Below, one piece after another: positions 49,898 to 59,669 of a stretch of DNA of 64,000 nucleotides (position 1 is its first letter; each line of letters starts with the position of its first letter). Position numbers and translations under genes: made by a program. The notes beneath the pieces are model-generated. The model saw only the letters and a list, made by a program, of their open reading frames with translations, was not told the origin of the DNA and did no database searches. The DNA comes from Bacilli bacterium (lineage in GTDB: Bacteria; Bacillota_I; Bacilli_A; RF39; UBA660): assembly GCA_017544165.1 (NCBI GenBank), contig JAFYER010000012.1, positions 131,538-195,537 on the forward strand, given 5' to 3'.

Positions 49898-50950
49898 TTA
49901 GTCGTTGTTACGTAAAAATGGTGGAATTTCATAATCAGTATCTAGAATCTCTGGTGTCTTTCTTTTTGGTATTTCATCGCCAAATAGAGCATCATCACCA
50001 ACTTGATCATCAAAACCAGTAGCTATTACTGTAACAATAACTTCATCTTGAAGGTTTTCATTTTTGATAGCACCGAAGATAATATTAACATCGCTATTAG
50101 CAGCCTCTCTTACAGTTTCAACAGCATCTTCGATTTCAAATAATGTTAAGTTATTACCACCTGTTACATTGACAATAGCATTCTTAGCTCCATCGATTGT
50201 CTCTTCAAGTAAAGAATTTGATACAGCTTGTCTTGCCGCCTCGATTGAACGGTTTTCTCCAGCAGCACAACCAATACCAATAATGGCAGTACCACTTTTT
50301 TCCATAACAGTTTTAACATCCGCAAAGTCAAGGTTAATTACTCCCGTTACAGCAATCAAATCAGAGATTGATTGAACACCACGGTGTAATACATTATCAA
50401 CTTCTTTAAACGCTTCATCAAATGAAGTAGTTTTATCAATAATATCTCTCAAACGATCATTTGGAATAACAATAAGTGTGTCAACATGCTTACGTAGTTC
50501 CTCAAGACCAATAAGAGCATTTTCCATTCTTCTTTTACCTTCGAACTTAAATGGTTTTGTTACAATACCTACAGTCAAGGCACCAAGTTCTTGAGCTATT
50601 TCTGCAATAATTGGAGCAGCTCCAGTTCCTGTGCCACCGCCAAGTCCACAAGCAACAAAGACCATATCAGCGCCAGTAAGAACTTCTTCGAGTTCAGCTT
50701 TGCTTTCTAGGGCAGCAGCTCTTCCAACTTCCGGATTAGCTCCAGCTCCACGTCCACCTGTAATATTTTTACCAATTTGAATCTTATTCTTGGCAAGTGA
50801 AGCATTTAATACTTGTAAATCAGTATTAACTACATAAAACTCGACACTTTGAACACCTTCGGTTATCATGCGGTTTACGGCATTACATCCGCCACCACCT
50901 ACGCCAACCACTTTAATCTTAGCGATTTGATCCATCAATAAATCTGACAT
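49898..50950 (-). CDS. ftsZ: cell division GTPase FtsZ
   Basis: [13 protein letters not shown], the tubulin signature GGGTGTG, and a C-terminal ...IPPFLR peptide. Confidence 0.9.
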
Positions 50951-50959
50951 ACATCCTCC

Positions 50960-52213
50960 TTAATTATCAAAAAAGTAACCATAGATTTTACCAAGTAATG
51001 AATTTTCGGAAATATTGACTCTTTTATGATTACCGCCAAATTCTTCTTGTTCATCTAAAGAAAATATTGAAAATTCTACATTTCGTAATTTCAACCGGCT
51101 ATTATAGTATTTAATCATACCTAATGCCACAGAGTACTTATTATCGCGAGCACCAATCTCTTCGACTATTCCAACTCTTCCCATTGTACCAAAAAAGTTA
51201 TCGATTAAGCCATCGAAATGATTGAGTTCACTTATTCCTCCTGAGAATATTATATAACTAATTTCTTTCTTTGTTAAGAGGTTAATTTGCTTTTTAATTA
51301 ACCCTAGTAATTCATTTAACCTAGATATTACTACGGCACTGATATCATATTGGCTAATTTTAACATCGCCACCATTGATATTTTTAACCATAATACTCTC
51401 ATTTGGTTGAGCTAAATGAATATCTGCTACAGCTAGTTTTTCCTTTAAATAACTGGCATCTTTGTTAGAAATTTTAAAAACATAAGCTAAATCATTATCA
51501 ATGATACCAGAACCCATATCAATAACTTCACAAGCGGTTAAAATACCTTTATTAAAGATTGAAACAGTAGTATTACTTTGACCGATATTAACTACAGCCC
51601 CAACCTTTTCTTTATCTGGTGTCTTTTTAAATTCATAAAAATCAGCAAGTGGTTCGATACAAATATCGACAACTTTAACACCAATCTTATCTAAAACTTT
51701 AATTATTCCTTCACTATTTTTCTTAGGAATTACCACCGCAACATCATTAACAGTTAAGTTATTAGCAATCAAATTAATTGGTGTTTTAACAACTTCATCT
51801 TCATTAATAATAAATTTTGTTGGTAATATTGTTACTAATTCCTTATTTGGTTCTATTTTATTATAAATACTTGCTTGCATAGCTTTAACTAAATCTGCAT
51901 GAGTAATAACTTTATCAGCACTTTTAATAGTAACAGAGCCGCTTGATATAAAACAATCTACATTAAAGGCAGGTATATTTACTAGTACTTTTTTAACTGG
52001 TAAGCCAAGAAGATTCTCAGTTTTAGTAAAGGCTTCCTTTAAAGCAAATTCCGCACTTTCAGGATTTACAATAAAGCCTTTTCTTATTCCTTCGGAAGGA
52101 ACATCAACGCATGACAAAACATTCAACTTATCTTTTTGAATTTCTCCAACAATTAACTTAATTGAATTTGAACCGATATCCAAACTGGCAATAATCTTGC
52201 GCATATCCCTCAC
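50960..52213 (-). CDS. ftsA: cell division protein FtsA
   Basis: Actin-fold ATPase with IASLDIGSNSIKLIVGE and a C-terminal amphipathic tail. It lies upstream of ftsZ. Confidence 0.85.
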   Translation of the reverse strand: MRDMRKIIASLDIGSNSIKLIVGEIQKDKLNVLSCVDVPSEGIRKGFIVNPESAEFALKEAFTKTENLLGLPVKKVLVNIPAFNVDCFISSGSVTIKSADKVITHADLVKAMQASIYNKIEPNKELVTILPTKFIINEDEVVKTPINLIANNLTVNDVAVVIPKKNSEGIIKVLDKIGVKVVDICIEPLADFYEFKKTPDKEKVGAVVNIGQSNTTVSIFNKGILTACEVIDMGSGIIDNDLAYVFKISNKDASYLKEKLAVADIHLAQPNESIMVKNINGGDVKISQYDISAVVISRLNELLGLIKKQINLLTKKEISYIIFSGGISELNHFDGLIDNFFGTMGRVGIVEEIGARDNKYSVALGMIKYYNSRLKLRNVEFSIFSLDEQEEFGGNHKRVNISENSLLGKIYGYFFDN

Positions 52214-52261
52214 CTATTTTATATAGCATCATTATATCGAAATATTTTTCTTTTAGCAAGT

Positions 52262-52295
52262 TTGAAGCAAACAAAAATAGAGATTTCTCTCTATT
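52262..52295 (-). terminator. rho-independent terminator of the infC-rpmI-rplT operon
   Basis: 8-bp stem AATAGAGA/TCTCTATT with loop TTTC overlapping the rplT stop codon, followed on the minus strand by TTTGTTTG. Confidence 0.55.
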
Positions 52296-52398
52296 TAAGT
52301 GCTTTTAATAATTCATCTTTTTTCATTGATGAATAACCTTTAATTTCTTTTTCTTTAGCTAAAGCCTTTAATTCAGCAAGTGTTTTAGAAGATAAGTC
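52291..52398. repeat. ~105-bp dispersed repeat (copy 2) encoding the shared Rho_N-like C-terminal module of L20
   Basis: Roughly 85-90% nucleotide identity with 22078..22185. The encoded peptides differ at 6 of 35 positions. Confidence 0.7.
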
Positions 52399-52833
52399 TT
52401 CTTTTACTGCTTCTTTTTTGGTTTCTTTAACCTCTGCTTTCTTTTCAGCTTTTTCTTCTTTAGCAGGAGCTACTTTGCCATTTAAAGCATCTTTAGCAGT
52501 TTTAACTAATGCTGCAAAAGCTTTTTCATCATCAATAGCTAGTTCTGAAAGCATTTTACGATTGATTTCAATATTAGCTTTAGCAAGACCATTAATGAAT
52601 TTTGAATAACTGATATCATTCATACGACATGCAGCGTTAATTCGTGTAATCCATAATTTACGGAAATTTCTTTTGTTTTGTTTACGATCACGATAAGCGT
52701 ATGCACCACTATGGAAAAGTTGTTCTTGTGCAGTCTTATACAATCTATGTTTGCTACCAAAATATCCTTTAGCAGCTTTTAATACTTTTCTTCTTCTGTT
52801 TTTAGAAACAGTTCCACCTTTAACTCTTGTCAT
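52291..52833 (-). CDS. rplT: 50S ribosomal protein L20 with Lys/Glu-rich linker and C-terminal Rho_N/SAP-like module
   Basis: L20 core (ARVKGG..RRK..LK.AKGY.G...R.....Q...) followed by a KE-rich linker and ...[36 protein letters not shown]. Confidence 0.9.
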
Positions 52834-52847
52834 TTTTTAAACCACCC

Positions 52848-53042
52848 TTATATTACACTTGAAAGGTTTTTAGACATACCTTTCGCTAAAACGCCCTTAT
52901 TTCTTCTTTGTCTAACGGCTTTAGCTGTATCCTTTCCTGTTTTGTGATTACCATTACCCTTCTTAAAAGTAACAGTACCATTTTTCTTTTTGCTTAACAC
53001 TTTGCTACTAGCTTTATGTGTTTTTTGTTTACATTTTCCCAT
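52848..53042 (-). CDS. rpmI: 50S ribosomal protein L35
   Basis: 64-aa highly basic protein starting M.K.KQKTHKAS.K, located between infC and rplT. Confidence 0.7.
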   Translation of the reverse strand: MGKCKQKTHKASSKVLSKKKNGTVTFKKGNGNHKTGKDTAKAVRQRRNKGVLAKGMSKNLSSVI

Positions 53043-53048
53043 TTTTTA

Positions 53049-53582
53049 TTACTTCCTTTCTATTTTCTTTGGCGCCAACATCATCCAAACTTGACGGCCT
53101 TCAATTTGAGGTTTAGTTTCAATATCAGCAAGATCAGAAAGAGCATCAGCAAAGCGCAAAAGCACATCACTTCCAAGCTCAGGGTGAGCAATTTGTCTTC
53201 CTTTAAAACGAATAAATGCTTTAATCTTATGACCCTTCTTCAAATACTCAGCAGCATTCTTACGACGAGTTTCAAAATCACCGACATCAATTGTAACTGA
53301 TAAACGGTATTCTTTGATCTCTTTGCTATTTTCTCTTTGTTTCTTTTGAGCTTCTTTTAGTTTCTTTTGCTTTTCATAACGAAATTTATTATAATCCATT
53401 ACCTTAGCTACAGCCGGAACTGCATTTCCACTCATCAAAACTAAATCAAGTCCAGCATAATTTGCAAGTGTTAAAGCATCACTCAATTTTTTAATGCCTA
53501 ATTTCTCACCATTAGGTCCTATTACCATTAATTCCTCACATTTAATTTGATTATTAATTGGTAAATCCTCAATCTTTGCTAT
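53049..53582 (-). CDS. infC: translation initiation factor IF-3 (probable non-AUG ATA start)
   Basis: The ORF from the internal ATG (53528) begins MVIGPNGEKLGIK. The upstream in-frame sequence (AKIEDLPINNQIKCEEL) aligns with the IF-3 N-terminus. The ATA at 53582 has GGAGG 7 nt upstream, consistent with the usual AUU/AUA autoregulatory start of infC. Confidence 0.75.
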   Translation of the reverse strand: MAKIEDLPINNQIKCEELMVIGPNGEKLGIKKLSDALTLANYAGLDLVLMSGNAVPAVAKVMDYNKFRYEKQKKLKEAQKKQRENSKEIKEYRLSVTIDVGDFETRRKNAAEYLKKGHKIKAFIRFKGRQIAHPELGSDVLLRFADALSDLADIETKPQIEGRQVWMMLAPKKIERK

Positions 53583-53740
53583 ATATCTTCGCCTCCATAC
53601 AATTTAAAAGATGGATATTACTATCCACCTTAAAAGTCTATAAAATATCTTTATGGCCTTTTACCTATCGACTAACATCAATCAGGTGGATATAAATCGC
53701 TTTCCTTTAAATAACATCAATATCTTATAATAATTATATG
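53583..53740 (-). promoter_or_regulatory. infC-rpmI-rplT leader with candidate long-range pairing (L20-leader-like)
   Basis: Complementary 8-mers TATCCACC (53619..53626) and GGTGGATA (53693..53700) sit in the untranslated leader. L20-mediated feedback leaders are typical of Firmicutes. Confidence 0.3.
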
Positions 53741-53743
53741 TCA

Positions 53744-53769
53744 TTGTCAATAACTATTTATCTTCTTTT
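53744..53769. repeat. 26-bp perfect direct repeat TTGTCAATAACTATTTATCTTCTTTT (copy A; duplicate of the recA 3' end)
   Basis: Identical to 54249..54274, 505 bp away. Lies 13 nt downstream of the KilA-N gene. Confidence 0.85.
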
Positions 53770-53781
53770 ATTTTTTAATCT

Positions 53782-54204
53782 TTAAAACTCCTTAATCAAG
53801 TAAATTTTAAACAAATTATCAATCCAAGATGCAAATTCCAAAGCAATATCAGAATGTGCAAAAGTGCCATCACTATATCTTCCTTTGCTAGAACGAATTC
53901 CCAATGAATTTACCCTTTTAATCCATTGATTAGGGGTCATAGTAAATGATTTCTTAGGAGCCTCAATTATAATTTGGCGGAATTCCGCCGAATTAAAATT
54001 ATCATTACTTAGTTCCTCCCATAATCCTAAAAACTCTATCGTATCATAATTACTTAACCACTTTTTTATTGCATCTGATGGTTCTTTAGGATTTTTATAT
54101 TTTGCTAAATCAGTTAACGAAATATAATCTTCATTATTAATTCTCATAACTCTAACATCATTATCATTAACATTCATAACTGTCATAATACCATTCATAA
54201 TCAT
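53782..54204 (-). CDS. KilA-N domain protein (phage/plasmid-associated DNA-binding domain)
   Basis: 140 aa with RBS AAAGGA. The ISLTDLAKY...W......EFLG.WE.......GTFAHSDIALEFASWID pattern is typical of KilA-N/APSES-type domains. Confidence 0.6.
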   Translation of the reverse strand: MIMNGIMTVMNVNDNDVRVMRINNEDYISLTDLAKYKNPKEPSDAIKKWLSNYDTIEFLGLWEELSNDNFNSAEFRQIIIEAPKKSFTMTPNQWIKRVNSLGIRSSKGRYSDGTFAHSDIALEFASWIDNLFKIYLIKEF

Positions 54205-54248
54205 TCCTTTCTAAATAAGGAGATGATTGTAATAACCACCTCCTTATC

Positions 54249-54274
54249 TTGTCAATAACTATTTATCTTCTTTT
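54249..54274. repeat. 26-bp perfect direct repeat TTGTCAATAACTATTTATCTTCTTTT (copy B; native recA 3' end)
   Basis: Covers the recA stop codon (54259..54261) and the last four codons (K E D K). Confidence 0.85.
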
Positions 54275-55320
54275 TTAGTCTTTTCTTTTAATGGTTCCTC
54301 TACCTTATATTCAATAGGTTTAAAACCATAATGTTCACGAATTTTGTTTTCTATTTCAATAGCTAATTTCCTATCTTGTTTTAAAAGGGTTCTAACATTG
54401 TCTCTTCCTTGGCCAATCTTTTCACCTTGATAAGAATACCATGCACCACTTTTTTCAATAATAGCAAGATCAGATGCTAAATCAACAATTTCACCCTCTC
54501 TTGAGACACCTTCCCCATATAAAATATCTACCGAAGCAGTTTTAAATGGCGGTGCTACTTTATTCTTAACAACTTTAATATTTGTCTTATTTCCATATAC
54601 TTGATCGCCGCTTTTAAGTTGTTCACCTTTTCTAACATCAAGTCTAATACTTGAATAAAACTTTAAAGCTCTTCCACCAGGTGTAGTTTCAGGATTACCA
54701 AACATGATTCCAACTTTTTCTCTCAACTGATTAATAAAAATAGCTGTAGTTTTAGTTTTATTCATACTTCCAGATAATTTTCTAAGAGCTTGACTCATTA
54801 GTCTTGCTTGAAGTCCAACATGCGAATCTCCCATTTCTCCATCAATCTCTGCTTGAGGAACAAGGGCCGCTACTGAATCTATTACAACTAAATCGACAGC
54901 TTCGCTTTTGACAAGCGCATCACATATTTCTAGTGCTTGCTCGCCCGTATCTGGTTGAGATAATAAAAGCTCGTTAATATTTACTCCTAAATTTTTAGCA
55001 TAGACAGGATCAAGAGCGTGTTCGGCATCAATAAAGGCAGCTCTTCCGCCATTTTTTTGTACTTCCGCAATAGCCTGAAGAGCAATCGTTGTTTTACCAC
55101 TACTTTCAGGTCCAAATATTTCTATTATTCTTCCTTTTGGATAACCGCCAACCCCAAGAGCGATATCTAGAGCAAGTGAACCACTACTAGTTGTTTCAAC
55201 TTCGATGTGTTCTTCATTGCCTAGTCGCATAATAGCACCTTCCCCAAATTGTTTTTCAATGTCGGCTAAAACTTGGGCAAGTGCTTTATCTTTATCCTTT
55301 GTTTCTTTTGTAATTTTCAT
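54259..55320 (-). CDS. recA: recombinase RecA
   Basis: Walker [11 protein letters not shown]1/L2 loops, and a KE-rich C-terminal tail. The start is set at the ATG at 55320 (RBS AAAGGAGAA), not the longer raw ORF. Confidence 0.9.
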
Positions 55321-55439
55321 TATGTTCTCCTTTAATATAACTCTGACATTTTTATTGTATCTTATCATTTTATAAAAGTCAACAAAAATATGCAAATATT
55401 TGTTCGCTATTAATATTGCAAAAAAAACCGAGATTTTTC

Positions 55440-56330
55440 TCAGTTTCGATGATTAACTGTAATTAATTCAAAATCTTCGGTTAATTGTTTAATTCTTTCA
55501 ATTATTCTTCTTGCTTTAACAATATCTAAACTATCTTTTGAATTTCCTAAATGTTTTTCGAGTTCTTCGATAGTAAGATTACTTGTAAAAAAGGTAGTCA
55601 TATGATTATTCATTCTTGTCTGTAAGATAGTTGCAAGTACTTCATCTCTTCCCCATTCACTTACCTTTTCAGCACCGATATCATCAATAAGAAGGATTTC
55701 GACATTTGCTAAATATGAAACTTTACTATCAACTAAATTAAAATTATCTTTTAGATTTCGAAGTAGTTCAGGAAAATAAACTATTTCAAAAATAGCATTT
55801 TTCTTTTCTTTGAGTTCATTTAAAAGAGCTGCTAGTAAAAATGTTTTACCTCCACCAAAGCTGCCATGAAGGTATAAACCCTTATTTACCTTTGTAACAT
55901 CATAGTTATCAAAAAAGCTTTTTAACCATTTAATTAATTTAACTCTCTTTTTATCAGTTACGTCTATATCTTTCATCCTAGCATTTAAAAGAGCTGTATC
56001 ACTTTCTTTATTCTTAATATCTGATTCATATTGTTTTAATTTTTTACATGGCACATAATCAAATACCACTTTGCTTTCATTTTTACTTGGATAGTAAACA
56101 TATCCTTTCATCATATTTGGGCATTTACCAATACCAGGACAATTCTTACAATTATCTAGTTCATTTATTGTGTCCTCTAAAGAAGTTAAATTTCTTTTAG
56201 CTTCATCCTCAGTTAACCTTAAAGCTTTAACTAATTTAGAAATTTTAGGATCAAGTTTTTTTAAAGCATAGTTTTTATCAGTAGAACTCTTAACATTATT
56301 TTTTAACATCTTAGCAACTTTTACTTCCAT
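55440..56330 (-). CDS. dnaI: primosomal helicase-loader DnaI (DnaC-like AAA+)
   Basis: N-terminal Zn-binding region [12 protein letters not shown], then AAA+ Walker A GSFGGGKT and Walker B LLIDDIG. Confidence 0.8.
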
Positions 56331-57601
56331 TACTTAAACTCCTTTAATAATTCCTCTAACTCTTTTGCTTCTTCTTCACTAGATTCACTTTTTTCTATTT
56401 TTTCATTAAACCAGCTAGGCTCAATGGCTGCACTCTTTTCTTTAGTCAAAGCTTTCTTCAAAGTTTTTTTATGTTCTTTTTCAGCAAATAACATTGCTTC
56501 TTCCGCTGTTTTTAAATCAGCTCTTTTCCATTGGGATGCAATAGTTTCAACATAATTTGTTGTTAATTTATTGTTATTTTTTCTTAAACAATAATCAAGT
56601 AACACATTGACAACTGCAGGGGTAAGCTCTAAATCAAATAATAGCGATTCAACCAACTTCAAGTCTTTAGCGGTCGGTGATGCTCCTTTATTCTTCTTTT
56701 TTAAATAATCATATGGAGAAATATTTTCAAACATTGCTATTATTTGGGCTCTTTTTGAAGTATCACCCGAAGCCTTTTTTAAATACTCTGGTTGCGTACG
56801 ATATACAATTGTCGGAAGACTATTATTAGAAAGTTGATAATTTTTTTGAGCAGCACTTCTAAGTGCATTTTTATCAATTAAACCAAATTCATTTAAACTT
56901 GCTCTTATAAGTTCAATCATTTTTAGAGTATCTAAATTGTAAATAAAAGATAAATTATCAATCATTTCTTTAGTCTTTTTATTAAAAGCCTTTTGGGATA
57001 AAACATCTTTAGGAATACTTTCTACAATTAAATCATAATCAATTTTACTAGTCAGTTTATAAGAACCGGTAACCTTTTCTTTTATATTCTCTATTTCTTT
57101 AAAGCTTTCTGATTTATAAACATCATCCATATTTCTAGTTATTTCAATAAAGCCTGTTAAATCATACTTTTTCTTTTGATAAGCTTTAATGATTTTTTCA
57201 TATTCTTCACTTCCAACATTGTTATATAAAACAGTACTAAAAATAGGATTATTTAAAAATTCATCAGGATTTAATGGTGAGTATAATTCATAAATATATA
57301 TTAATACATTTTCTTCTTTGACAAATGATTTCAATAAACCGGTTGCCTCTAAGGATTCTCTTGCTTCTTTTAAACTTTTAGAACTACATTTTAAAACACT
57401 TAATAAATGATGGTGTAATAAAAAATCACTTTCCTCACAATTATTATTTAAATCTTGCCATAAAATTAAATATAAAGATACTGCTAAAGGGCCTATAATT
57501 GGACTATAAAAAGTAAGTAAATGTTGACGATCAATATCGCTTAAAATAGTTTTGTTAATTACTTTATAGCGATCAGCTGGTAAAATTGAATAACTACTCA
57601 T
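56330..57601 (-). CDS. dnaB: replication initiation and membrane attachment protein DnaB (Firmicute DnaB/DnaD-like)
   Basis: 423 aa with a DnaB_2/DnaD-like N-terminus (SILPADRY...LLTFYSPIIGPLAVSLYLIL). It is immediately upstream of and overlaps dnaI. Confidence 0.7.
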   Translation of the reverse strand: MSSYSILPADRYKVINKTILSDIDRQHLLTFYSPIIGPLAVSLYLILWQDLNNNCEESDFLLHHHLLSVLKCSSKSLKEARESLEATGLLKSFVKEENVLIYIYELYSPLNPDEFLNNPIFSTVLYNNVGSEEYEKIIKAYQKKKYDLTGFIEITRNMDDVYKSESFKEIENIKEKVTGSYKLTSKIDYDLIVESIPKDVLSQKAFNKKTKEMIDNLSFIYNLDTLKMIELIRASLNEFGLIDKNALRSAAQKNYQLSNNSLPTIVYRTQPEYLKKASGDTSKRAQIIAMFENISPYDYLKKKNKGASPTAKDLKLVESLLFDLELTPAVVNVLLDYCLRKNNNKLTTNYVETIASQWKRADLKTAEEAMLFAEKEHKKTLKKALTKEKSAAIEPSWFNEKIEKSESSEEEAKELEELLKEFK

Positions 57602-57674
57602 AATCCATATTCCTTTCTTAAATATATATTATAAAATTATCATATCATAATTGTAAACAATAAAATTAATATCT

Positions 57675-59669
57675 TTAAACGCCAAAAGAAAATAAGTAAT
57701 AAAAGAACAAAAAGGCTTTTTTGTAAATATTATATTTAACAAGTACAAAACCATCAGTAAAAAATGTTAAAAAATTATATATTATGCCAATAATAACTAA
57801 AAATACCATAGTTTTAAAAATTAACTCTTTATAATTATTACAATTATTATATAAATTCATCCATATTATGACAGAACTTATTGATAGCATAAAACCAAAA
57901 TCGCAAATGTATCTTGGCAATATACCAGCCATTTGAACGTCGGCAATTATAAGGATTATTGAAAAAATAATGGCGCATAAACTAATGTAAAACTCTTCTT
58001 TATGGCTAATATACTTTTTAAATTTGAAAATAAATAAATTAATAATTGTTAACATATTTAAAATAGCAAAACCGCCAATCATTTGCTCATAAATGGTAAT
58101 TCCAATATAATTGCTATCTATATTATAAGCGTGTATAAATGGAAACACTAAATTAACACGGGGAATTTCAAATAAAAAAGCAAATACACCTGAAGCAATT
58201 CGATCAAAATAAAAACCTCTTTTTGTCATATCATTGCTTGTTAAATTAAAATTAACTCCGAAATTAAAAACAGAATGATATCTAACATAATTATAATACA
58301 TTAAAAGGCCCGCTGATATTATCATTGGAATGGCTATTGCTAGTATATTTTTAACTTTAAAAGCCTCTTTGTTTTTTAAATATTTCCAAAAAATAGGTAT
58401 GCCTAGAAAAGCTGCTAAAAATATCTGAGGACGACATCCAGGCACTAAAGCAAGAGCAATACTACCTATCAATAAATCCTTAGTACAAATCTTTTTATCA
58501 TCTCTTGCAGCTTTTAACCAAAATCCTAAACCAAGCATAGCAAATGCAGCTCCAAAGGTTATTGGAATTCCATAAAAGAATCCTTTCCTAATTACCATTG
58601 AAATGCCAGACAAAACTGCTACTGATATAGCACAAACAAAATAATGCTTAAATTTTGCTTTGGGATAAAATCGATTAAATAATTGATATGTTACAAAAAA
58701 GCCTGCTATAACATAGAAAATGCAAGACATAGTAACAGCAAGCGAATTATTTAAATCATGATGAGTGATTAAATAAAACGGAAGATGCATAAATAAACAA
58801 GGTACAATTCCAAAATAAGAATAATATTTGCCATTATAAAATGAATAATCTAGGTAATAATCCTCATTTACTTTTAACTGTCTATCTCTAACAGATACAT
58901 CATAAGGATTTTTTAAAGCTAATAACTTATCAGAAACTTCCAAATCAAGAGTAATCTTTCCCTTAGCAAGAGTTCTTGCCAATACCTGATATTGATAAAA
59001 ATGAGTTATGTGATCAAAATCATATTTATCTTTACCATAATTTGAAAAATTAACAAAAAAATAAATTCCCAAAGAGATTATACCGATACATATTACAATA
59101 AAGGAAAGATATTCTTTATAATTTTTTTCAAATGGTTTAAGTATTTTTATATATGTACATATAAAAGAAATAATAAAAACCATACAAACTCTTATATAAT
59201 TTATTATAATTGGAACTTTAGCATTTAAGGATATGCTTTTAATGTTAGCATCATTAGTTGAACGAATTTTTATCTTAAGGCTATCTAATTTTCCCATTGG
59301 ATGAAGAGAAATATATTTTGTTTGTTTAATGCTATCCACTATTATAACATTACCTGCATCATAAAACTCATCATTGCCCTCATCTTTAAGCATTATCAAT
59401 AACTCGCTTGGGTCTTTCGAAGTACCATTGATATAAATGTTATATACATCTTTTTTAATATCATTTATTTCAATGATTTCCGATTCTTGTATATTAATTT
59501 CAACGTTATTACTAAAATAATAATTTTTATTTATCTCCTTATTAATATCAAATTTTATTGTTTTTGGATAAAATAGTGATTTATAATGCTTAATATTAAA
59601 AACAGTAAATTCTAAACCTACGGCAATTAAAATACTGATTATTATTATCTTTATAATATTTTTATTCAT
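57675..59669 (-). CDS. polytopic integral membrane protein, GT-C-fold glycosyltransferase-like (or polysaccharide polymerase-like)
   Basis: N-terminal TM helix, a ~150-aa extracytoplasmic domain, and then ≥12 TM helices. The first extracytoplasmic loop carries the acidic motif GKDKYDFDH. The start is set at the ATG at 59669. Confidence 0.45.
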   Translation of the reverse strand: MNKNIIKIIIISILIAVGLEFTVFNIKHYKSLFYPKTIKFDINKEINKNYYFSNNVEINIQESEIIEINDIKKDVYNIYINGTSKDPSELLIMLKDEGNDEFYDAGNVIIVDSIKQTKYISLHPMGKLDSLKIKIRSTNDANIKSISLNAKVPIIINYIRVCMVFIISFICTYIKILKPFEKNYKEYLSFIVICIGIISLGIYFFVNFSNYGKDKYDFDHITHFYQYQVLARTLAKGKITLDLEVSDKLLALKNPYDVSVRDRQLKVNEDYYLDYSFYNGKYYSYFGIVPCLFMHLPFYLITHHDLNNSLAVTMSCIFYVIAGFFVTYQLFNRFYPKAKFKHYFVCAISVAVLSGISMVIRKGFFYGIPITFGAAFAMLGLGFWLKAARDDKKICTKDLLIGSIALALVPGCRPQIFLAAFLGIPIFWKYLKNKEAFKVKNILAIAIPMIISAGLLMYYNYVRYHSVFNFGVNFNLTSNDMTKRGFYFDRIASGVFAFLFEIPRVNLVFPFIHAYNIDSNYIGITIYEQMIGGFAILNMLTIINLFIFKFKKYISHKEEFYISLCAIIFSIILIIADVQMAGILPRYICDFGFMLSISSVIIWMNLYNNCNNYKELIFKTMVFLVIIGIIYNFLTFFTDGFVLVKYNIYKKAFLFFYYLFSFGV

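Follow-up and report, generated by a model that had tools for sequence, protein, structure and literature searches.

A decayed single-gene KilA-N cassette in the recA–infC spacer of uncultured Bacilli, probably inserted with a long target duplication

The DNA between recA and infC in a 64,000-nucleotide stretch from an uncultured Bacilli bacterium (hereafter the window, meaning the whole stretch analysed) is probably a decayed remnant of a single-gene cassette of about 900 bp, which entered the recA–infC spacer through an insertion event that duplicated a long piece of the target, without integrase, transposase or terminal inverted repeats. The family to which it belongs is widespread and consists of single-gene cassettes that enter chromosomes with long target duplications. 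The cassette reached a forebear of this uncultured Bacilli lineage of the gut or rumen, and 26 bp of the target were copied to both sides. The original prediction had read the locus as an att-like, site-specific integration into the recA 3' end. A real insertion, an empty site and a restored recA 3' end were borne out; a larger element with an integrase, att recombination and an intact KilA-N gene were not.

The 26-mer TTGTCAATAACTATTTATCTTCTTTT occurred in exactly two copies in the window, 505 bp apart (exact match), as originally reported. Further matches with up to three mismatches numbered zero in the 64-kb window, and zero were expected from 100 dinucleotide-preserving shuffles. The two copies were the sole long perfect direct-repeat pair with a spacing below 6 kb in the whole window. 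A search for other copies of the 26-mer and of the KilA-N gene, which had been thought worth making, found no second copy of the gene in the window and no other 26-mer in the window or in related contigs. Read on the minus strand, the 26-mer is AAAAGAAGATAAATAG-TTATTGACAA and contains the final codons of recA with their TAG stop, as well as a perfect TTGACA. This TTGACA, a −35 hexamer, goes beyond what had been noted before. In agreement with the earlier description, copy B contained the recA stop (CTA at 54259–54261, which reads TAG on the minus strand) and also the last four complete codons; one base of the next codon was in it as well. Copy A lay 12 bp past the stop of the single minus-strand KilA-N gene, where the earlier description had put it. 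The order on the minus strand was recA, copy B, a 16-bp stem-loop, the KilA-N ORF, copy A, the infC leader, infC, rpmI and rplT. The flanking genes were dnaB-like, dnaI, recA, infC, rpmI, rplT, ftsA, ftsZ, spoIIGA and sigE. The G+C content of the insert was host-like.

Table 1. Features of the recA–infC region in the window (positions counted from the first letter of the window)
Feature	Position	Strand	Basis and remarks
recA CDS, 353 aa	54259..55320	-	ORF list; Pfam RecA (E = 6.5e-141) and RecA_C; last codons and stop inside copy B
Direct-repeat copy B, recA-proximal	54249..54274	.	Exact match; TTGACA -35 hexamer at 54255..54250 on the minus strand
Promoter-like site of inserted gene, predicted	54226..54255	-	TTGACA, 18-nt spacer, TACAAT; 11/12 consensus matches; top of consensus scan
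16-bp stem-loop at 5' end of insert	54213..54249	-	Inverted repeat I14; abuts copy B; UUAUUU follows
Unique inserted DNA, 479 bp	53770..54248	-	Missing from empty-site contigs; deletion derivative of 900-bp insert (comparison of L001-L010)
Truncated KilA-N gene, 138 or 140 aa by choice of ATG	53782..54204	-	Pfam KilA-N E = 2.6e-18
36-bp near-perfect palindrome centred on GAATTC, inside KilA-N CDS	53965..54000	.	Inverted repeat I2; family survey; covariation count; fold
Scar of 421-bp deletion	53768..53786	-	Window insert aligned with L001 and L002; C-to-T at 53784 makes TAA stop (53782-53784)
Direct-repeat copy A, infC-proximal	53744..53769	.	Exact match; infC -35 hexamer at 53750..53745
infC promoter-like site, predicted	53722..53750	-	TTGACA, 17-nt spacer, TAAGAT; 10/12 consensus matches
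infC leader region	53529..53721	-	29-nt inverted repeat I1: 53602-53630 and 53684-53712
infC (IF3), ATG-started ORF, 159 aa	53049..53528	-	Pfam IF3_N and IF3_C; anchor for fetching related contigs

Ten rumen and gut metagenome contigs (L001–L010) with an identical IF3 protein and the same gene order were found by exact IF3 look-up. They belong to the same species as the window or to a closely related one. L005, L006 and L010 had an empty allele, with one 26-mer, corresponding to copy A, in a recA–infC spacer of 226 bp and no insert. The empty site that the original prediction had anticipated thus exists in contigs whose IF3 is identical to that of the window, and the DNA lying between recA and the infC promoter is indeed foreign. 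L001 and L008 had a full allele, with repeats 926 bp apart, a 900-bp insert and a 283-aa gene. In L003, L004 and L009, as in the window, the repeats were 505 bp apart and enclosed a 138-aa gene. The shortest filled allele was that of L002, with repeats 318 bp apart and no ORF. Adding the insert and one more 26-mer to the empty allele reproduced a filled allele exactly, and nothing else had been gained or lost; the spacer of the window was the 226-bp empty spacer plus 505 bp.

Alignment with L001 and L002 showed that the window form is the 900-bp insert minus 421 bp and plus a nonsense codon. The 421-bp deletion fell between two internal 19-bp repeats, TTCAAAGATTA[A/G]AAAATAA, of the full-length gene. 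Because of this deletion and the nonsense codon, the KilA-N gene of the window is a truncated copy of the full-length allele and not an intact gene. L002 had an additional 187-bp deletion, which took away the start codon. These alignments, in which the deletions mapped exactly, show that the full-length gene decayed by deletions, of 421 bp between the internal repeats and then of 187 bp in one lineage. An assembly artefact was rejected, as the structures recurred in independent assemblies from different pipelines. It was also ruled out by the deletion derivatives at the window site, which kept both repeats, and by repeats that had diverged between related genomes at other sites of the family (34 bp in L026 vs 20 bp in L024; 21 bp in L061 vs 12 bp in L044).

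The recA divergence among the strains was 1–5%, and that of L008 was about 10%. Among strains whose flanks diverged by 1–5%, the alleles that coexisted were empty, full, truncated and remnant. The same recA 3' variant was present in the filled L001 and the empty L010, indicating that presence and absence of the insert are interleaved among the strains. In L008, recA differences were dense until 126 bp before the repeat, and then there were none. The insert of L008 differed from that of L001 by about 1%. Two changes were present in the right repeat of L008 and another two in the next 8 bp; L001 did not share them, while the farther right flank matched the L001 pattern. The simplest reading is that the L008 filled allele was imported by homologous recombination, with crossovers in recA and at the start of the right repeat. 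Given a crossover at that point, the right repeat of L008 would be the recipient's own, slightly different sequence. The filled allele has crossed, through recombination in its flanks, into a lineage about 10% diverged in recA.

These alleles bear on whether the KilA-N gene has been here from the start and the repeat arose only through a local rearrangement. The presence of the structure in a lineage as diverged as L008 would suit such an ancient, fixed feature, but L008 got its allele by recombination, with the breakpoint described above. The coexistence of the four alleles among closely related strains and the empty-site contigs contradict it, and no ancestral arrangement could include the recA stop-codon region in a second copy downstream of a foreign gene. 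We consider this explanation extremely improbable. A structure common to all relatives, with diverged repeats, had been named beforehand as an observation that would speak against insertion; empty, full and decayed alleles were found to coexist instead.

The largest allele found was 900 bp plus the repeat and contained one gene, indicating that the element has at no time exceeded a single gene. A recombinase gene was not present within 4 kb on either side of the site in the ten contigs, nor in the largest allele. These findings told against the suggested remnant of a larger element with a lost integrase. Pfam detected only KilA-N, in one ORF, and no transposase domain in the insert. Terminal inverted repeats of the insert were not found (best score 6 vs a shuffled mean of 6.9).

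A consensus scan was applied to the region. Its best two promoter-like sites, as judged by consensus matches only, were those formed by the two 26-mer copies. In the site of the inserted gene, the −35 TTGACA is duplicated target DNA and the −10 TACAAT is insert DNA; together they may form a promoter for this gene. Because the −35 box was duplicated, the infC promoter-like site was left intact downstream of the insert. Its −35 box lies in copy A, and its arrangement was the same in the window and in the empty-site contigs, which answers the earlier question of where the infC promoter now lies. The duplication preserves the recA stop and puts a −35 box before both the inserted gene and infC; neither neighbour is disrupted. 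A duplicated stop codon and −35 box would let a foreign gene wedge between the essential recA and infC, harming neither. The stem-loop at the 5' end of the insert had an RNA fold of −19 kcal/mol (z = −5.8), and 0 of 200 shuffles were as stable. It is a candidate terminator that may stop recA read-through transcripts. An Rfam search over 50000–58000 at E ≤ 0.1 gave no family, and the infC leader was therefore not assigned to the L20 leader family.

The window protein scored 66.3 bits with Pfam KilA-N (PF04383), above the gathering cut-off of 23.8 bits. Its 138-aa form, starting at the second ATG, has the NCBI record MBR4231497.1 (KilA-N domain-containing protein), whereas an exact look-up of the 140-aa ORF gave no record. 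In the 283-aa protein of the full-length allele (P0001), a KilA-N DNA-binding domain at the N-terminus is combined with a C-terminal domain that is conserved. The protein matched the PADLOC model PDC-S22 with E = 1.8e-113 at profile positions 5–275 of 281, and phrog_2657 was matched over the full length. The window protein matched PDC-S22 with E = 4.1e-54 at profile positions 5–136 of 281, indicating a truncated rather than a full-length member. It retains the N-terminal KilA-N domain only, and its C-terminal half is gone. PDC-S22 is a candidate single-gene anti-phage defence family, a database prediction; the literature mention found was in a genome survey. The KilA-N gene of the window strain is probably no longer functional in defence.

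Nothing informative came from NCBIfam with the full protein or from Pfam, at E ≤ 10, with four C-terminal domains. A PDB sequence search with the family profile gave nothing at E ≤ 1. Of two AlphaFold2 models, one built from 25 sequences had a mean pLDDT of 39, and the other, for which 81 sequences were drawn from three subfamilies, had 57.7. Foldseek against the PDB with these low-confidence models gave no match at E ≤ 0.001; an insignificant match to APSES/Mbp1 was obtained, as expected for KilA-N.

The KilA-N gene has at least 8000 close homologues. Protein identity within each subfamily was 75–90% despite sources spanning phyla, which included Bacilli MAGs; Geotalea, Nitrotoga, Bacteroidota and Verrucomicrobia; and Fibrobacter, Treponema and Thermoguttaceae. 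Family members were also found on plasmids and conjugative elements. The viral contigs scanned with the family alignment contained no relatives. In several lineages of other phyla, the gene sat between hsdM and hsdS of a type I restriction–modification (R–M) operon, with 4-nt overlaps at both ends. The sequences of these operons (hsdM, KilA-N, hsdS and hsdR) point to a translationally coupled member.

Flanking repeats were surveyed at 160 further loci from genome and metagenome collections, which gave 74 independent sites after clustering. Exact flanking repeats of at least 14 bp were present at 24 of 162 loci, compared with 16 of 1546 same-sized control windows from the same loci. A local alignment score of at least 20 was reached at 16 of the 74 independent sites and in 0 of 225 control windows. 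The repeats at those 16 sites were 21–152 bp long and 926–1065 bp apart, and each site had a different local sequence as its repeat. At survey sites with repeats, the unique insert was 887–995 bp around an ORF of about 850 bp. About three quarters of the sites had no flanking repeat. Where found, the repeats usually spanned a stop codon, terminator, promoter, ribosome-binding site or start codon. The L025 repeat (52 bp exact, 71 bp aligned) contained the promoter, ribosome-binding site and ATGAAT of the next gene, and the L026 repeat covered seven codons from the start of a gene reading like uvrB, together with its ribosome-binding site. A stop codon and a promoter lay in the 54-bp repeat of L045, terminator hairpins in those of L061 and L193, and the 3' end of hsdM in that of L183.

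The insert ends varied relative to the ORF. One end ranged from inside the start-codon region to 290 bp upstream, and the other lay between a point 65 bp within the ORF and one 140 bp downstream of it; no terminal sequence was common to the insert ends across sites. Family members at other sites have 3' ends that aligned with the first 13–15 nt of the right repeat. Short homology between the lysine-rich tails of the two genes, and not duplication alone, could therefore account for part of the right junction. Two other origins were tried and rejected. Amplification through the repeats was dismissed, since the only tandem pair found (L089) consisted of two divergent members with 69% DNA identity and was not an amplified unit. 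An RNA-intermediate, retrogene-like origin was dismissed because some inserts (L061 and L193) carry their own upstream promoter-like sequences.

A second cassette with the same kind of flank was seen in the L134 group. It is an unrelated, Bro-N-like pseudogene cassette, and the cassettes of this group were bounded by a recurring AGACTAGAAC-containing sequence. We take the neighbouring Bro-N-like cassette protein to be DinD-like. Homology between it and the C-terminal domain of the KilA-N family was rejected (hhalign probability 0.1%), and a C-terminal HMM found no such paralogues.

The survey also bears on an attL/attR origin, in which a site-specific recombinase encoded elsewhere or lost would have targeted the recA 3' end and left the 26-mers around a non-autonomous or remnant integrative element. 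As in integrase-mediated integration, the perfect direct repeat lies across the 3' end of a conserved gene and restores it, a feature typical of integrase targets, and an empty site with one copy exists. In L169 and L170, a GC-rich pair, the same motif of about 30 bp flanked the gene at two different sites, as would be expected of a preferred or element-borne site more than of a random target. The recurring boundary of the L134-group cassettes also speaks for an attL/attR origin. However, neither the 900-bp, one-gene allele nor the 4 kb around it in any of the ten contigs held a recombinase gene, and the 26-mer was confined to this one site in the window and the related contigs. The relatives sat at many unrelated sites, each with a different local repeat of 21–152 bp, and L169/L170 was the exception to the lack of a common core between independent sites. 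Repeat length also varied, unlike in integrase-mediated integration. An attL/attR origin, as favoured by the original prediction, is therefore very unlikely.

Insertion with long target duplication fits the locus better. The term 'insertion with long target duplication' was applied by the Kobayashi laboratory to R–M genes (Nobusato et al. 2000, which is ref. 37 in Furuta, Abe and Kobayashi 2010, NAR 38:2428, PMC2853133). Such insertions have been described for type I–IV R–M systems, for a lone mcrA gene and for orphan methylases; their long, variable duplications occur without other mobile elements and often span start or stop codons (PMC2853133). Double-strand breakage was suggested as the mechanism, with restriction-type DNA breakage suspected of driving it (PMC2853133).

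Like those cases, the present family has a defence-type gene that is present in one genome and missing from an otherwise colinear empty site. The flanking direct repeats each copy one single target sequence, are far longer than ordinary transposon duplications and vary in length by site. Neither a transposase nor an integrase is carried by the insert. Start or stop codons often fall within the repeats, so the neighbouring genes survive, and single-gene cases (mcrA and an orphan methylase) are known there too. The differences lie in the cargo, the repeat length, the hosts and the palindrome. The cargo here is KilA-N/PDC-S22 without R and M homologues, although relatives occur inside type I R–M operons. 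The window repeat is 26 bp against the 30-bp cut-off of the published work; elsewhere in the family it is 32–152 bp. The hosts here are uncultured Bacilli, and the published cases report no conserved intragenic palindrome. Set against the features used by Furuta et al. 2010, the locus had a colinear empty site, a single-copy target and no other mobile-element gene, but had neither a duplication above 30 bp nor homologues of R and M genes. The locus was therefore filed as a variant of the long-target-duplication kind, and not as att integration or a transposon. The repeat length below the operational threshold and the non-R–M cargo count against this assignment.

Among transposable elements, the Mycoplasma element IS1630 of the IS30 family is cited as duplicating 19–26 bp of variable target (PMC2853133). 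As far as that citation goes, the likeness lies in long, variable target duplications in low-GC, Bacillota-related hosts, and the range of 19–26 bp includes the 26 bp found here. Unlike the present insert, IS1630 has a DDE transposase and terminal inverted repeats. Elements of the IS1634 type presumably offer the same comparison. The family differs from an insertion sequence or DNA transposon in having no transposase domain, no terminal inverted repeats and duplications of 14–152 bp.

For insertion with long target duplication, the following steps are proposed. The two strands would be cut 26 bp apart, a gene-sized DNA fragment would be joined into the resulting break, and fill-in synthesis at the staggered break would copy the 26 bp to both sides. 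Replicative template switching would be an alternative route to the same product. Recombination between the two 26-mers would delete the insert precisely, and such a crossover would yield exactly the empty allele. No donor locus that would show junction microhomology was found; among the matches listed, the closest relatives outside the recA–infC site were about 80% identical. The same signature recurred at no fewer than 16 independent sites of one small, very abundant non-restriction family, with a full series of empty, full and decayed alleles at one site. This argues that the process needs no restriction enzyme in the cargo. A unit of 0.9 kb makes the entry of defence genes without recognisable mobility machinery experimentally testable.

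A palindrome was conserved inside the gene. It lay at about nt 216 of the gene in nearly all members and was 28–36 bp long in the family. At least 10 of 12 positions were complementary in 159 of 194 genes, and the palindrome was perfect in 43; in a control region of the same genes, the best palindrome score was mostly 7–8. The arms differed among subfamilies yet remained complementary (AATTCGGCGG/CCGCCGAATT, AATTCCCTCG/CGAGGGAATT, AAACGTGTCG/CGACACGTTT and AAACCCGTCG/CGACGGGTTT). In 84 distinct 36-mers, 91.3% of cells paired, compared with 73.8% in shuffles, and 0 of 500 shuffles reached the observed value. Pairing was at most 58% when the partners were slid, and 9 of 14 pairs changed on both sides. 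These comparisons show that the palindrome is maintained across the family by compensatory changes. The arms are in frame and the codons of one are reverse complements of those of the other; the amino acids therefore covary. G:T (43) and A:C (32) mismatches were similar in number, and selection at the DNA level was thus not distinguished from selection at the RNA level. The covarying palindrome is an unusual case of nucleic-acid-level selection dictating amino-acid pairs.

A self-mobilising single-gene element was also considered, in which the KilA-N/PDC-S22 protein makes staggered cuts or otherwise catalyses the insertion of its own gene and the palindrome is a cis-acting site. The gene stands alone between duplicated flanks at many unrelated sites, and the unique inserts are tightly sized around the ORF. 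The protein identity of 80–90% across phyla indicates very frequent horizontal transfer. The protein joins a DNA-binding domain to an uncharacterised, highly conserved C-terminal domain with many invariant charged, His and Tyr residues, and covariation maintains the intragenic palindrome. Against this, the insert ends vary between sites, with no conserved sequence, and there are no terminal repeats. Pfam, NCBIfam, PDB sequence searches and Foldseek indicated no nuclease or recombinase fold or family, which is weak evidence given the low-confidence models. The Bro-N-like cassette and the published R–M genes have the same flanks without a KilA-N/PDC-S22 protein, and the gene resembles a fixed, translationally coupled subunit in type I R–M operons. 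Self-mobilisation is therefore unlikely. There is likewise only a small chance that PDC-S22 KilA-N genes form a hitherto unrecognised class of single-gene selfish elements that spread across phyla, with insertion duplicating tens of bp and the 28–36-bp palindrome serving as a cis-acting DNA or RNA site or a self-recognition site. If true, this reading would give a tractable model for the unexplained long-target-duplication insertion of defence genes.

Another KilA-N protein, BstA, is a prophage-encoded abortive-infection protein whose DNA-based self-immunity element, aba, overlaps its own gene (Owen et al. 2021, PMC8585504). A PADLOC scan gave PDC-S22 and no BstA model at E ≤ 0.01, and the close subfamily here, unlike the prophage-borne BstA, was not found in viral contigs. 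The aba of BstA spans 63 bp where the gene starts and has direct CCCGCC repeats at its ends, whereas the palindrome lies mid-gene. The likeness is that a functional DNA element lies in or overlaps the gene, which offers a possible analogy for the palindrome. By this analogy, the palindrome may be a self-recognition element like aba.

The KilA-N gene contains a palindrome within its coding sequence. Across the family the palindrome occupied the same position within the gene, around nt ~216, as for example at L170:585-640 and L045:4195-4250. Complementarity was scored across 84 distinct 36-mers. Pairing was found in 91.3% of the cells, versus 73.8% in shuffles, and both sides were altered in 9 of the 14 palindrome pairs. 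The amino acids encoded by the two arms covaried as reverse-complement codons. Compensatory changes keep the palindrome conserved across phyla.

Features of the window and of two GC-rich family loci
Feature	Location	Strand	Description
Palindrome, 28-36 bp	window 53965-54000		GAATTC at centre; within KilA-N coding sequence
infC leader	window 53529-53721		29-nt inverted repeat, 53602-53630 and 53684-53712
Ribosomal protein L20	window 52291-52833	minus	180 aa
~30-bp motif (GTTGGGACGRATGGGGAGTGACGG...)	L169 1352-1383 and 2361-2390		either side of KilA-N family gene; GC-rich subfamily
~30-bp motif (GTTGGGACGRATGGGGAGTGACGG...)	L170 338-361 and 1312-1345		either side of KilA-N family gene; GC-rich subfamily

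The 3' 700 bp of recA were compared between L008 and L001, two contigs with the filled allele. The sequences were ~10% diverged as far as a point 126 bp short of the repeat, beyond which they were near-identical. The transition clearly marks a homologous-recombination breakpoint in L008 recA, through which the filled allele entered another lineage.

In the GC-rich subfamily, L169 and L170 had different outer flanks, yet the same ~30-bp motif bordered the family gene on each side in both loci. This suggests that the target is a preferred one or that the element carries the site itself; a random duplication would be a poorer fit. Family members were also located between hsdM and hsdS in type I R-M operons (L183-L192 and L199-L208), with 4-nt overlaps around the gene in L199-L208. 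In the L183-type loci, a stretch of ~100 bp from the 3' end of hsdM recurred downstream of the family gene; the first 32 bp of this repeat were exact, and the rest was mosaic.

Human-gut Bacilli contigs (L134 1990-2975 vs L146 2930-2975) differed by a second cassette of 941 bp, immediately upstream of the KilA-N gene in L134. It was Bro-N-like and carried a premature stop. An imperfect repeat that included the exact 16-mer TTTTAAAATATAGAAA bounded this cassette, and the motif AGACTAGAAC recurred at its bounds. In L089, two divergent family members (2-811 and 910-1797) lay in tandem with 69% DNA identity. A short stretch containing stop codons interrupts the second, close to an inverted repeat at 1591-1629. 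Promoter regions upstream of several family members (L193 ~1200-1240, and L061 and L044) shared a AACAAATGTAT motif, with the form CGAACAAATGTATGC in L193. This motif may resemble half of a Bacillus LexA box.

The infC leader matched no Rfam family at E <= 0.1, the L20 leader included. IF3 is 177 aa in the NCBI annotation versus 159 aa for the ATG-started ORF, implying that translation begins upstream of that ATG, at a non-ATG codon. In related contigs that carry the identical L20 gene, the precomputed annotation gives a Pfam Rho_N hit in the C-terminal extension of the protein, an unusual fusion for L20.
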